64,000 nucleotides of DNA, from positions 133,908-197,907 of the forward strand of contig CAZUAR010000003.1 of NCBI GenBank assembly GCA_964617845.1, given 5' to 3'. Positions 29,051 through 40,670 of the stretch are shown piece after piece (position 1 is the first letter of the stretch; every line of letters starts with the position of its first letter). This DNA is from an uncultured Kofleriaceae bacterium. GTDB taxonomy: Bacteria > Myxococcota_A > Polyangia > Haliangiales > Haliangiaceae. The translations under genes and the position numbers were made by a program. A model generated the notes under the pieces. The model saw only the letters and a program-made list of their open reading frames with translations, was not told the origin of the DNA and searched no databases.

Positions 29051-32023
29051 CTACGGCTTGAGCTTGGCGTCGATCTGGATCGAGCCGTTGTCCGGCCAGA
29101 CGAGATCCTGAACGTACGGCTGGTAGTCCTTCAGGCGGAGCTCCAGCTTTTTCGCGGACGACATGTCGACGCCCTTGATCGTCGTCGGGGTGCGGCCGCG
29201 GACTTCGCCGTTGATCCAGACCTCGGCACCTTCGGGCTGACTGAGGATGATCAGCTTTCCTGTCATGGGGTTGAGCACGGCCTTGATGCTCAGCTCGCCG
29301 CCGCGAGTCGGAATGTCGACGGTCTCCGAATAACGCTCGTGGCGCTTCAGCTCGACCTTGATCGTGTGACGGGTGTTGACGGGGATCGATGGGATCGTGA
29401 GGGGCGTCGTACCTGCGAGTCGCACGTCGTCGAAGACAACTTCCGCCCCCGAGGGGATGGATTCGACATGGATCGAGCCGACGGTCGGCGCCGTCTCGCG
29501 CGTCGATCGGATGATCAGAAACGTTGCCGCGGCGGCCACCGAGATGGCGACGAGGCCAGCGACGATGTAGGTGAACCACCGCTTGCGTGCGGCGCCGAGC
29601 TGGTACTGCGACGGCATCTCGTCCACCTCGAAGAGGCGGAGCTGACCCGTCAGCGTCATCGGCTTCTGCGCGGGCTGCATCGAGTACAGCGCGTTCGGCG
29701 TCACCGGCTGTCCGGGATACTGCTGCTGCTGCGGATATCCCTGCTGCTGTGGATGCTGCGGGTATCCGGGCTGCACCGCATACCCCGGATGCCCCGGCGG
29801 GTAGTACTGCGGCTGCGCATACGGTTGCTGCTGCTGCGGATACGGCTGCTGGTACTGCGGCGGCTGTTGGTAGCCGTACTGCGGTTGCGGCGCGGGCGCG
29901 GCGGGAAGTCCGGGCGGCGTCGGGATCGCGAGCGGCAATCCCGATGCATCGGTCGCGTAGCCGGTCGACGGCACCTGCGGTGGAAACGGCGGCGCTGCTT
30001 GTTGCGCGCCGGGCGTCGCGTGCGGGAACTGCGGTGGTGGCGGCGGCGGCGCGGGCGGTTGCTCGATCGATGGCGCCCGCGGCACCGGCATCGGCTCGCT
30101 CGCTTGCTTCGCGACGATCGCCTGCAGCACGTTCGCCTGCGGAACGCCGCCCTGCGGGGTGCGCTTCGACGGACGCGGCTTGCGCAGCTCGCTCACCGCC
30201 GGCGCGTGAATCTTCGCGGCGAGCGCGGCGGGCGGTGGTTGCGCCGGACGCTTCGACACCGACGGCTTCTTCGGACGAATGTCGCGCGCGATCGTCGGAT
30301 CCTCGACGCCTTCCTCCTCGGGCTCGCCGGTCTGCGTGTCCATCTCATCGTCGGACGTATCCTCGGGATCGGGCGCGACCGGCGGTCCCTCGCTGACCAT
30401 CGTCGCTTCGACCTCTTCGCCCGCGTCGCGCATGAAGTTGCGCATCTGCGCCGGCGTCGTGATCATCGTGCTCTCGCCGATGTTCGCGAGCTCGTCGTCC
30501 GCCGGATCTCCGTGCTCCCACGTCGACGGATCCGCGGAGCTTCCCGGCTGGATCGGCCCGCTGTCCTCGGAGTCCGGAGACGCGGGCGCCGCGTAGTCGA
30601 GCTGCCGCGTCTCGTCGGTCGGCTTTCTCGGCTGCGCGGGACGCGCCGGCGCGACCTTCGCGGCCTTGAGCGACGGGATCGGCGCCGCCGACGCGCCGAG
30701 GTTTCCCGTCGGCGGACGCTGCACCTTGTCGGGCCCGACCGGCGGCGGCGGCTCCGTCGGCGCATGCGCGCGCGTCATGTTGCCCGGCGCACGCGCCCCG
30801 GGCGCCGGCTTCACGCCGACGACCTGCTTGGTCGGCGCCGTCGGGGCGCGCTGCTGGGGAGCATCGGGCGCGCCCGCCTGAGGTTTGATCGACTGCCGCG
30901 GCTGCGCGGGGCCCGATCGCGGCTGCATCGTCGGCTTGCTGTTCGGCTTCAGCTCGTCGACGTTGAAGATGACGCTGTTCTCGTCGCGCAGCTCGTCGCC
31001 CGCGTGCACGAGGTCGTTGGTGTCGAGCGTGAACGTCGCGTTCGCGCCATCGTGCACCTCGATATCGGGGAAGTCGTTATCGTTGTTGATGACGACCGGA
31101 TCGCCGACGATCTGGCGTAGCAGCCCCGAGACCTTCGCCGCCGTGAACACCGGCGAGTACGCGTGCAGGAAGCGCTCGAGGTCGGACGCGAGGTCGCCCG
31201 CGCTCTGATAGCGCTCGCCCGGCACCTTCTGCAGCGCGTGCATCACGATCTTCTCGAGCTGCGGCGGCACGCCCTTGCGCAGCTTGCTCGGCGGCGCGAT
31301 GTCGGCCTTGCGCGCCATGTCGAGCAGCCGATGCAGATCCTCCTCGAGGTAGAGCATCTGCCCCGTGATCATCTCGTAGAGCACGATGCCAGCGCTGAAG
31401 ATGTCCGAGCGGAAGTCGATCGGATCGCCCCAGGCCTGCTCGGGGCTCATGTAGTAGTACTTGCCCTTGATCACGCCGACCGCGGTCTGGCGCGCCTTCA
31501 TCGTCGCCTTCGCGATGCCGAAATCGACGAGCTTGACCTCTCCGGAATAGGAGACGAGCACGTTCTGCGGAGAGACGTCGCGGTGCACGATGCCGAGCGG
31601 CTTGCCGGTGTGATCCTTCTTGCGGTGCGCGTGATCGAGCGCGCTCGCGATCTCCTTCGCGATGAACGCGCAGCAGTCGAGCGGCATCTCGAGATCCATC
31701 TCGGAGCCCTTGCGCAGGATCTTGTAGAGATCCGCGCCGTCGACGTACTCCATCGTGATGTAGTACGTGTCGCCGACGCGACCGAGGTCGAACGTCTGCG
31801 CGATGTTGCCGTGCGCGAGCTGCACCGCGATCTTCGCCTCGTCGACGAGCATCTGGATGAATGCCTCGTCCTCCGCGAAGTTCGGGTGGATCATTTTCAG
31901 GGCGACGTACTTCTCGAAGCCGGCGATGCCCTTCGTCTTGGCGAGGTGGATCTCGGCCATCCCGCCCACGGCGATCTGTCTGACGAGTCGATACGGCCCG
32001 AACTGCCGTTCAGCCATCGCCAT
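29051..32023 (-). CDS. Hanks-type Ser/Thr protein kinase with long Pro- and Gln/Tyr-rich low-complexity region, TM helix and two C-terminal PEGA domains
   Basis: GGMAEIHLA...VALKMI, HRDVSPQNVL, DFG, SPE. Low-complexity stretch QYGYQQPPQYQQPYPQQQQPYAQPQYYPPGHPGY. TM helix WFTYIVAGLVAISVAAAATFLII. PEGA domains IPSGAEVVFDDVRLAGTTP and QPEGAEVWINGEVRGRTP. Confidence 0.9.
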   Translation of the reverse strand: MAMAERQFGPYRLVRQIAVGGMAEIHLAKTKGIAGFEKYVALKMIHPNFAEDEAFIQMLVDEAKIAVQLAHGNIAQTFDLGRVGDTYYITMEYVDGADLYKILRKGSEMDLEMPLDCCAFIAKEIASALDHAHRKKDHTGKPLGIVHRDVSPQNVLVSYSGEVKLVDFGIAKATMKARQTAVGVIKGKYYYMSPEQAWGDPIDFRSDIFSAGIVLYEMITGQMLYLEEDLHRLLDMARKADIAPPSKLRKGVPPQLEKIVMHALQKVPGERYQSAGDLASDLERFLHAYSPVFTAAKVSGLLRQIVGDPVVINNDNDFPDIEVHDGANATFTLDTNDLVHAGDELRDENSVIFNVDELKPNSKPTMQPRSGPAQPRQSIKPQAGAPDAPQQRAPTAPTKQVVGVKPAPGARAPGNMTRAHAPTEPPPPVGPDKVQRPPTGNLGASAAPIPSLKAAKVAPARPAQPRKPTDETRQLDYAAPASPDSEDSGPIQPGSSADPSTWEHGDPADDELANIGESTMITTPAQMRNFMRDAGEEVEATMVSEGPPVAPDPEDTSDDEMDTQTGEPEEEGVEDPTIARDIRPKKPSVSKRPAQPPPAALAAKIHAPAVSELRKPRPSKRTPQGGVPQANVLQAIVAKQASEPMPVPRAPSIEQPPAPPPPPPQFPHATPGAQQAAPPFPPQVPSTGYATDASGLPLAIPTPPGLPAAPAPQPQYGYQQPPQYQQPYPQQQQPYAQPQYYPPGHPGYAVQPGYPQHPQQQGYPQQQQYPGQPVTPNALYSMQPAQKPMTLTGQLRLFEVDEMPSQYQLGAARKRWFTYIVAGLVAISVAAAATFLIIRSTRETAPTVGSIHVESIPSGAEVVFDDVRLAGTTPLTIPSIPVNTRHTIKVELKRHERYSETVDIPTRGGELSIKAVLNPMTGKLIILSQPEGAEVWINGEVRGRTPTTIKGVDMSSAKKLELRLKDYQPYVQDLVWPDNGSIQIDAKLKP

Positions 32024-39485: not shown

Positions 39486-40670
39486 TCACCACGCGAATCC
39501 AGTGCTGGCCACGGCGCCTCCTTCTATAGGTGCGAGCGCGAACGGAGGCGGCGCGTCACGGTCGACGGGCCGGCCCGTGATGACCCAGTAGAGACCCGCG
39601 CCGAGCCCCACGGCGGTCGCCGCGAAGGAAATCCCCATCACGCCGTACAGGGCCGTTCTGCTGCTTCCCGTGGCATCTGCGGCGATTGCAGCCGTGACGC
39701 CGCCGACCGCGGCGAAGCCGACGCCGGCGCCGATGAACAACCAGCCACGCGTGCGGACATGTGCGTGCGATGTCTCGAAGTCGGGGACGATCGTTCGCTG
39801 CTGGCGCGCGTCGAGTCGCACGCGCCGTCGCCACGGCTCCATCCCGTCGCGACGGACCTCGACGAGGTGCTCGCCGGGCGCGAGCGAGATCGGCTCGTTC
39901 GCGCGAAACGGCACGGTCGCCCCGTCGAGGACGAGCGTATCGCCGCTCTGGATGGTGAGCCACGCGCTGGTCTCGGCCGGCGTCACGTCGGGACGAAAGC
40001 TCGGATCCTCGACGAGCTCGAAGATCGCATCGGTCACGATCCCGGGTAGGGCGTTCACCGACGCGCGCGCCGGGCGATAGCCTGACTTCTCCACCACGAC
40101 CTCGTGAGTGCCGGGCTTGATCCGCCGGGGCGCGAGCGGCGTGCCGCCGTACGCGAGGCTGTCGATCGTGACGGTCGCACCGGGCACGCTCGTGACCACG
40201 GCGATCGCCGCGCCCTCGCCGAGCTCGTCGCGAAACACCGCGCGGCCCGCGGACGAGCGACACGTGTCGTGGAGCTTGCGCGTGTCCGCGAGCTCGCCGG
40301 AGCGCGGGTTCAGCTCGATCGCGTTGCGCGCCTCCGCGATGCAGTCCTCGAACCTGCCCTGCGCCTGCGCGACCGCGGCGAGGAAGCGATGCGGCCCGGG
40401 CAGCGCGGGGTTCATCGACGCTGCCTTCTCGAGGCGCGCGCGCGCCTCGTCGAGCTTGCCGAGGCGGTACGCATCGACGCCCGCTTCGAACTCGCGTGTG
40501 AGCTTGTCGTCCGCGCCCGCGATGCGGACGGTCAGGAGGAGCGCGAACGCGACGACAACCGATCGCACGCGACAAGCGTACGCGCGTCTGCGCGAAATCT
40601 CCACGATCGCTCGACGCCGCCTCCACGGCTGCTGCGTATGCCCTTGGCCTCGGGGTGGTTGATTCGTCAC
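39486..40670 (-). CDS. TPR + tandem PEGA domain protein with C-terminal TM segments
   Basis: TPR-like YRLGKLDEARARLEKAASMNPALPGPHRFLAAVAQAQGRFEDCIAEARNAIELNP. PEGA domains VPGATVTIDSLAYGGTP...HEVVVEKSGY and SGDTLVLDGATVPF...HLVEVRRDGMEP. The true start may be the internal GTG before VRSVVVAFALLL. Confidence 0.65.
   Translation of the reverse strand: MTNQPPRGQGHTQQPWRRRRAIVEISRRRAYACRVRSVVVAFALLLTVRIAGADDKLTREFEAGVDAYRLGKLDEARARLEKAASMNPALPGPHRFLAAVAQAQGRFEDCIAEARNAIELNPRSGELADTRKLHDTCRSSAGRAVFRDELGEGAAIAVVTSVPGATVTIDSLAYGGTPLAPRRIKPGTHEVVVEKSGYRPARASVNALPGIVTDAIFELVEDPSFRPDVTPAETSAWLTIQSGDTLVLDGATVPFRANEPISLAPGEHLVEVRRDGMEPWRRRVRLDARQQRTIVPDFETSHAHVRTRGWLFIGAGVGFAAVGGVTAAIAADATGSSRTALYGVMGISFAATAVGLGAGLYWVITGRPVDRDAPPPFALAPIEGGAVASTGFAW

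Follow-up and report, generated by a model that had tools for sequence, protein, structure and literature searches.

The stretch of DNA analyzed here (64,000 nt, referred to as the window) derives from an uncultured member of the Kofleriaceae (Myxococcota) and has a GC content of ~68%. Its positions 29051-40670 are filled by seven consecutive open reading frames (ORFs) of the minus strand, designated genes A to G, whose products range from envelope proteins, among them a TonB-dependent receptor, to a predicted ATP-binding GHKL protein and a PEGA-domain Ser/Thr kinase. This 11.6-kb run is probably a composite of evolutionary modules, A with B-C-D-E being one and F-G the other, packed in an operon-like manner in this genome. 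An obligate single apparatus is unlikely, because the link between E and F has often been broken in evolution. Frame and ORF analysis gave a third-position GC of 0.81-0.88 for the seven ORFs. An exact match of protein C (37352-38464) is present on the NCBI record GCA_050183415.1 (contig JBFXBI010000028.1), where independent gene calls yield the same seven genes; a preliminary description of this DNA, which had read seven consecutive minus-strand genes from it, is borne out by these results. The genes are the following:

39486-40568, minus strand: gene A, TPR-PEGA protein; further possible starts (both GTG) at 40604 and 40670; public records give 360 or 372 aa
38473-39444, minus strand: gene B, lipoprotein; bounds from start-codon inspection
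37352-38464, minus strand: gene C, Cys-rich lipoprotein; ATG start with AAGGAG just before it
35418-37355, minus strand: gene D, OmpA/TSP3 protein; GTG start, alternative start at 37364
33061-35421, minus strand: gene E, TonB-dependent receptor; ATG start
32010-33032, minus strand: gene F, predicted pseudo-receiver/GHKL protein; bounds from start-codon inspection
29051-32017, minus strand: gene G, PEGA-domain Hanks-type kinase; ATG at 32017 is the start conserved among relatives, alternative ATG at 32023

Concerning the junctions, overlaps were found at three of the six (C/D, D/E, and F/G) and not at four as previously counted, the earlier list itself holding three:

A-B: 41-bp gap
B-C: 8-bp gap
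C/D: GTGA overlap at 37352-37355, the start of D lying on the stop of C
D/E: ATGA overlap at 35418-35421, the start of E lying on the stop of D
E-F: 28-bp gap
F/G: 8-nt overlap from ATG 32017; 14 nt at ORF level (ATG 32023)

The D/E overlap and the gaps of 8 and 28 bp are as first reported, the C/D overlap ends at 37355 and not at 37356, and the A-B gap is one bp shorter than the 42 bp given before. The reported 14-nt overlap of F and G holds for the ORFs and is reduced to 8 nt from the start that relatives conserve.

The composite nature of the run emerges from its relatives. We compared 80 species-level genome loci (the best 80 of 391 relatives, all of them Kofleriaceae) and 80 metagenome loci, on which all window proteins were mapped and junction lengths measured, and scored the E-F junction in the 75 evaluable Kofleriaceae species; more distant context comes from short metagenome contigs, and all carriers are uncultured genomes. 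The B-C gap ranges from -14 to 97 nt in 54/54 loci (median 9 nt), the C-D spacing from -13 to 71 nt in 55/55 loci with an overlap in 40 of them, and D-E stays within range in 62 of 64 loci, overlapping in 48 of the 64. In more than 50 loci, the B-E genes are coupled in translation. The second unit is equally compact, F and G lying within -60 to +300 nt of each other in 141/142 loci with 91 overlaps, mostly of 8 nt. Since dozens of species retain the order and spacing of both B-C-D-E and F-G, the arrangement is not a product of chance. Between A and B, many relatives carry a gene for a FadL/TodX-type barrel, for instance L010:2267-3484 on the plus strand (PF03349, 6e-31), which is not present in the window with its short A-B gap.

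The E-F junction is the only one that never overlaps in any of the loci measured. In 66/75 species, E is found on the same strand as F and at most 10 kb upstream of it, with a gap of <200 bp in 35 of the 75 (including the window type), a spacer of 500-900 bp in 24 and an insertion of 1.2-8 kb in seven, and no E exists within at least 3 kb of F in nine species. The junction is consequently broken or absent in 40/75 species, so that the conservation of all junctions, as expected for a single unit, is not seen. Within the sub-clade of the window it is compacted to 20-120 bp. In 18 of the 24 species with the 500-900-bp spacer, the latter contains a single-domain response-regulator gene, in all but one transcribed away from F, and because this divergent gene occupies the spacer, F-G must have a promoter of its own at such loci. 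A receiver gene of this kind was observed 100-150 bp upstream of the F start at L062:9482-9907 (minus strand) and at ~38 other loci of a large Kofleriaceae clade; it is divergent from F except in L061 and L126, occurs also in loci without B-E and is not present in the window.

The adjacency of F and G also extends to lineages without B-E. In L019, the order is a block of membrane-protein genes, F, G, and a bactofilin gene, with no B-E; in L035, the same block directly precedes F, again with no B-E between, and in L117 the C-D-E block is found downstream in inverted orientation. Distant orthologues of F (47-56% identity) keep an adjoining kinase with a C-terminal PEGA domain, their upstream genes being mostly unrelated. 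Specifically, L092, L100, L102, L103, L147, and L158 (F 47-53% identical) have F and the kinase-PEGA gene among unrelated neighbors, and in L090 and L091 F is followed by a kinase gene. An exception is L093 (F 56% identical), which presents the order D-E-(HAD hydrolase)-F-G-bactofilin. Additionally, in the lineage of L100 and L102 (~60% GC, F 51-53% identical) the gene of an A-like protein lies two genes upstream of F-G (L100:6306-7184, plus strand, and L102:191-1048); its product lacks TPR but has a signal peptide and a transmembrane anchor besides two PEGA domains. Downstream of G, a bactofilin gene was detected in 39 of the 42 species loci with enough flank, either directly (13-150 nt away) or with one lipoprotein gene in between, and it follows F-G even in lineages with only 47-61% F identity. 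Examples of the bactofilin gene stand at L019:13861-14274 (starting 20 nt after G), L093 ~8074, and L158 ~6923. The link of bactofilin with F-G may hence be deeper than that of the outer-membrane genes. The preliminary description had proposed synteny in relatives as a check and the absence of the arrangement as its refutation; the B-E and F-G units are kept, and the full arrangement is missing in part of the relatives, which to that extent goes against it.

F is the most conserved protein of the locus, with 73-97% identity across the family. Its 120 best database homologues are all 82-100% identical, and an exhaustive search gathered homologues in 2033 clusters at 50% identity. It has no Pfam or NCBIfam match, neither Response_reg nor HATPase_c_2 being among the matches; its homologues reach HATPase_c_2 at E-values from 8e-5 to 7e-3, under the gathering score of 27.4 bits, and sequence searches against the PDB gave nothing significant. 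The AlphaFold model (predicted local distance difference test, pLDDT, 82; predicted template modeling score, pTM, 0.81) shows a receiver-like domain of (beta-alpha)5 fold and, C-terminal to it, a GHKL domain. Foldseek matched the latter to SpoIIAB/RsbW (E-values 1e-6 to 1e-3, target TM-score 0.72-0.89) and the N-terminal domain to receiver domains and CpaE-type pseudo-receivers. Residues E174, N178, D227, G230, G257, G259, and G261 (N, G1, and G2 boxes) do not vary among the 62 sequences compared. In the receiver of the same 62 sequences, strand 3 does not end in a conserved Asp (positions 52-57 vary: H/S, A/L/V, D/T/S, G/D), a conserved Lys is missing at 101-103, and D12 alone is conserved. 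The N-terminal domain is a pseudo-receiver because the phospho-acceptor Asp and the Lys are not conserved. The receiver/GHKL assignment made earlier was right, as judged from fold and Foldseek matches, with the specification that the receiver is a pseudo-receiver, and F is predicted from its model to be a cytoplasmic protein combining this domain with a SpoIIAB/RsbW-like ATP-binding GHKL domain.

Many homologues of F at ~35-40% identity are ~700 aa long, with a transmembrane helix that joins the F module to two or three PEGA domains. Fused F-PEGA paralogues exist also in Kofleriaceae, where they adjoin not outer-membrane genes but genes for a NAGPA-family protein and an FHA/sigma-54 activator. 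In both loci examined (L086:10001-15150 and L088:10001-15004), the fused paralogue (~720-740 aa) is followed by these two genes. Such fusions provide independent evidence for a joint function of the F module and periplasmic PEGA sensors, the sensor part being played in the window by G. The latter harbors a Hanks-type Ser/Thr kinase domain (PF00069, 3e-36; VALK, HRDVSPQN, DFG, and SPE motifs in the translation), a Pro/Gln-rich linker of ~450 aa, one transmembrane helix (816-834) and two periplasmic PEGA domains (4.8e-17, 62.1 bits versus a cut-off of 20.8, in two stretches). Among NCBIfam models, G matches Stk1 best (261 bits versus a cut-off of 450), the kinase domain being the part that is matched.

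Concerning the envelope proteins, all domain calls of the preliminary description hold by Pfam, NCBIfam and motifs, as they do for the signaling proteins with AlphaFold added for F, and C proved in addition to be a lipoprotein. A has a signal peptide, TPR (Pfam TPR_2, 2.7e-8), two PEGA domains (Pfam, 1.5e-18; 66.9 bits versus a cut-off of 20.8, in two stretches) and a C-terminal hydrophobic hairpin, by which it is probably anchored in the inner membrane with its bulk in the periplasm. It is also the most variable member of the run, its orthologues being 26-82% identical. PEGA domains are hence present at both ends of the run, as had been pointed out, but a pairwise comparison revealed no similarity between the PEGA region of A and that of G (E 3.1), which have family membership alone in common. 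Literature searches for PEGA with kinase, with bactofilin and with TonB found no relevant work. B is a lipoprotein with the lipobox LAGC, and its uncharacterized family appears limited to Kofleriaceae and related metagenome genomes. Its structure model (pLDDT 89.5) had no convincing structural neighbor in the fold comparison, and profiles of B and of C found no relative among PDB sequences. C contains 15 Cys; the lipidation Cys18 is invariant and the 14 further Cys are conserved among 28 orthologues, which would be enough for about seven disulfides. None of these 28 orthologues has a Pfam match, C thus representing an uncharacterized family.

D consists of a signal peptide, an N-terminal domain of ~370 aa, four Ca-binding TSP3 repeats and an OmpA peptidoglycan-binding domain (PF00691, 7.3e-10, 39.5 bits versus a cut-off of 27.2), the last being present in 24/24 orthologues. 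The repeats appear as four DxDxDGxxDxxD motifs; TSP_3 is matched in 18 of the 24 orthologues. The profile of D matches PDB 5wtl, which comprises TSP3 and OmpA, at E 3.7e-40, and COMP at E 0.006. The best NCBIfam match is TraB (NF033763; E 7e-19, 67.2 bits versus a cut-off of 700), covering profile positions 321-495 of 522, i.e., the TSP3/OmpA part alone. Residues 1-375 have no family match, OMP_b-brl and Phenol_MetA_deg each being weakly matched in one of the 24 orthologues, and this domain is a putative outer-membrane barrel. E has a Plug domain (PF07715, 3.2e-15, 57 bits, cut-off 23.9) and a TonB-dependent barrel of the 22-strand type (PF00593, 1.2e-17, 65 bits, cut-off 27). The STN domain is the N-terminal signaling domain by which a TonB-dependent receptor can communicate with an inner-membrane partner. 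E has no STN match, and as Plug begins at residue 63 of the precursor, the stretch before it is too short to accommodate one. A D[VI]EVP motif ~10 residues past the signal peptide, conserved in at least 80% of 53 aligned orthologues, may represent the TonB box.

On the same strand and with short gaps, overlaps and no internal terminators beyond chance, the run has the layout of a single operon. Inside the chain, four terminator-like sites were found versus 6.3 expected from shuffles, so that there is no excess, and a 16-kb scan returned two promoter-like sites versus 0.7 expected. One promoter-like match lies in the A-B gap at 39474-39447 of the minus strand (sigma-70-like TAGACT, 16 nt, TATGAT) and ends 3 nt before the GTG of B. 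The terminator and promoter scan of the chain is uninformative. Judged from its tight packing on one strand, the chain could be co-transcribed in this genome, and in the sub-clade of the window the envelope block and the sensor pair are probably co-expressed.

We propose the following scheme. The first module would be a cell-envelope block of A and B-E, i.e., a TPR-PEGA protein, two lipoproteins, a TraB-like protein and a TonB-dependent receptor. The products of B-E may assemble as a peptidoglycan-anchored outer-membrane complex in which TonB energy would move a substrate, the lipoproteins B and C possibly serving as accessory binding or assembly parts. The second module, F-G, would be an autonomous signaling pair, in which the bitopic G would sense through its two periplasmic PEGA domains and F, presumably made in step with G via the start/stop overlap, would act as partner or substrate of G and relay the signal by phosphorylating a target or by partner switching. 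A lipoprotein gene and the bactofilin gene usually accompany this pair. In the sub-clade of the window, the short E-F gap probably ties the expression of the sensor pair to that of the envelope block, a link that is optional in evolution.

Several observations weigh against this division into modules. The 28-bp E-F gap and the lack of excess terminator-like sites fit a single transcript; the retention of E near F, in L093 as well, could mean a functional tie and not inheritance; and the A-like protein near F-G in L100 and L102 hints that A belongs with F-G rather than with B-E. The packing of the chain in the window, the same-strand location of E within 10 kb of F in 66/75 species, the D-E-(HAD)-F-G order of the distant L093 and the PEGA domains of both A and G would favor the proposal of the preliminary description, a single sensory or transport apparatus that spans the envelope and comprises all seven proteins, where D/E together with B and C would contact the PEGA domains of A and G, and G and F would relay inward. 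We regard this as unlikely. F-G is encountered without B-E in at least nine species and in most distant lineages; a receiver gene (nearly always divergent) or a kb-scale insertion parts E from F in 25/75 species; E and F never overlap; E bears no signaling extension, and no specific similarity links the PEGA region of A with that of G. The proposal is hence supported in part, by the packing, the domain assignments and the neighborhood of E and F, whereas the E-F breaks, the F-G pairs without B-E and the missing STN of E speak against it. A related and quite doubtful extension is that F defines an undescribed family working with PEGA sensors, fused or as a paired Hanks kinase, and that in Kofleriaceae this two-kinase sensor would monitor the peptidoglycan-anchored complex of TonB-dependent receptor and TraB-like protein and feed the bactofilin cytoskeleton; if true, this would be a trans-envelope signaling route built on a Hanks kinase and not on a sigma/anti-sigma pair.

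Two further explanations reduce the run to parts. It is very unlikely that C and D form a TraA/TraB-like surface module for adhesion or recognition, the Cys-rich lipoprotein being seated on the peptidoglycan-anchored D and the receptor and kinases being mere neighbors. The architecture of D is that reported for TraB, which is also its best NCBIfam match, and the Cys-rich partner C is encoded directly upstream with a 4-nt overlap. However, the TraB score comes from the TSP3/OmpA part and falls far below the cut-off, C has no Pfam match (PA14 would count) and no C-terminus resembling a sorting tag but N-terminal lipidation instead, and C-D always lies between B and E, with E translationally coupled to D. 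Similarly improbable is a neutral adjacency, merely inherited from a common ancestor, in which B-E would serve ordinary nutrient uptake, F-G unrelated housekeeping signaling, and co-regulation would be of no importance. Although B-E beside F-G is known from one family and one outlier and the junction has been broken repeatedly, the adjacency outlasts the divergence of B and C to 30-40% identity, and the 20-120 bp of the window sub-clade leave no room for a promoter in the spacer.

Around the run, A is the first gene, the genes upstream of it being on the plus strand, and past G the run continues on the same strand with three further genes, at gaps of 151, 25, and 155 bp:

40569-40680: intergenic region separating A from the divergent membrane-protein genes of the plus strand (40655-42659), from frame plot, ORFs and gene calls; likely the promoter region of the chain
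27481-28899, minus strand: gene H, Cys-rich lipoprotein; the ORF translation from 28971 (496 aa) contains 13 Cys
27048-27455, minus strand: bactofilin gene (Pfam Bactofilin, 1.7e-28), 25 bp after H
26494-26892, minus strand: 132-aa ORF

H is missing in the clade where the bactofilin gene directly follows G. The divergent genes at 40655-44790 (plus strand) comprise three small membrane-protein genes without Pfam match, followed by a gene for an OmpR-type regulator and one for a HAMP histidine kinase. This membrane-gene block is kept in near relatives, and it is the one located directly upstream of F in L019 and L035. Elsewhere in the window, an F1Fo ATP synthase operon was identified at 11592-17890 (minus strand), with two b-type subunit genes followed by delta, alpha, gamma, beta, and epsilon, and because of its presence the region is considered core chromosome. 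A large TPR-CHAT protein of ~1096 aa (CHAT 1e-78) is encoded at 57863-61156 (minus strand), and an unusual 699-aa ORF at 51918-54017 (plus strand) fuses a Ferritin-like domain, a divergent 4Fe-4S mono-cluster domain and two CDGSH iron-sulfur domains. Four more signaling genes, at 2540-4570 (minus), 55293-56510 (plus), 6788-8839 (plus), and 17895-19913 (plus), encode two Hanks kinases (one ending in TPR repeats) and two PAS hybrid histidine kinases. A high density of signaling genes, as in this window, is typical of Myxococcota.

The interest of the locus rests more on the F-G pair than on the chain, which as such is an ordinary operon-like cluster, because its parts (TonB-dependent receptor, OmpA anchor, Hanks kinase) belong to well-known classes. 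F represents a strongly conserved unannotated family, always paired with or fused to PEGA, and provides a first functional handle on PEGA domains; it could be a GHKL-type Ser kinase partner of Hanks kinases in Myxococcota, and its pair with G is repeatedly linked to a bactofilin gene. Concerning the envelope part, the occurrence of a TraB-like D with a Cys-rich lipoprotein outside kin recognition suggests that TraAB is one case of a wider class of peptidoglycan-anchored surface modules.

For TraB of Myxococcus xanthus, a signal peptide, an N-terminal outer-membrane domain, TSP3 repeats and an OmpA domain have been described (PMC12045341). D shares this layout, and like in the TraA/TraB pair it has a Cys-rich envelope partner, C, encoded directly upstream in the same operon. 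In contrast to TraA, C carries neither a PA14-like variable domain nor a MYXO-CTERM tag and is N-terminally lipidated, D scores 67 versus 700 bits, and the C-D pair sits between a lipoprotein gene and a TonB-dependent receptor gene. A true TraAB system was rejected on the score of D and the missing TraA features of C, and D is, from its sequence features, best described as TraB-like and not as TraB. With the TSP3-repeat OmpA protein of PDB 5wtl, D has in common the matched span of TSP3 and OmpA and the conserved repeat cysteines, but it possesses the extra ~370-aa N-terminal domain, to which no family could be assigned. The FecA/FecR/FecI system of trans-envelope signaling by TonB-dependent transducers resembles the run in that a TonB-dependent receptor gene stands beside genes of inner-membrane signaling, the logic followed in the preliminary description; the chain, however, includes no FecR-like anti-sigma or extracytoplasmic function (ECF) sigma factor gene, the partner would be a Hanks kinase, and a Fec-like transducer was rejected because E has no STN domain.

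For the signaling pair, the C-terminal domain of F superposes on SpoIIAB/RsbW (GHKL, HATPase_c_2) and shares the invariant N, G1, and G2 residues, but F differs by its N-terminal pseudo-receiver and its coupling to a Hanks kinase, with no gene for a STAS antagonist or a sigma factor nearby. The best whole-chain Foldseek matches of the F model are Leptospira LvrB/LvrC (PDB 8vc9, 9qih), which likewise combine receiver and ATP-binding domains; the superposition as a whole is poor (query TM-score 0.24-0.33), and F has neither the DHp helix with its conserved His nor a phospho-acceptor Asp in the receiver. G, finally, resembles the PASTA kinases PknB/Stk1 in being a bitopic Hanks kinase whose extracytoplasmic part repeats a small domain, but its putative sensors are PEGA and not PASTA domains and a long Pro/Gln-rich linker precedes its transmembrane helix. 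The run is built from known kinds of parts in an undescribed arrangement, to which B, C, and F contribute uncharacterized families.

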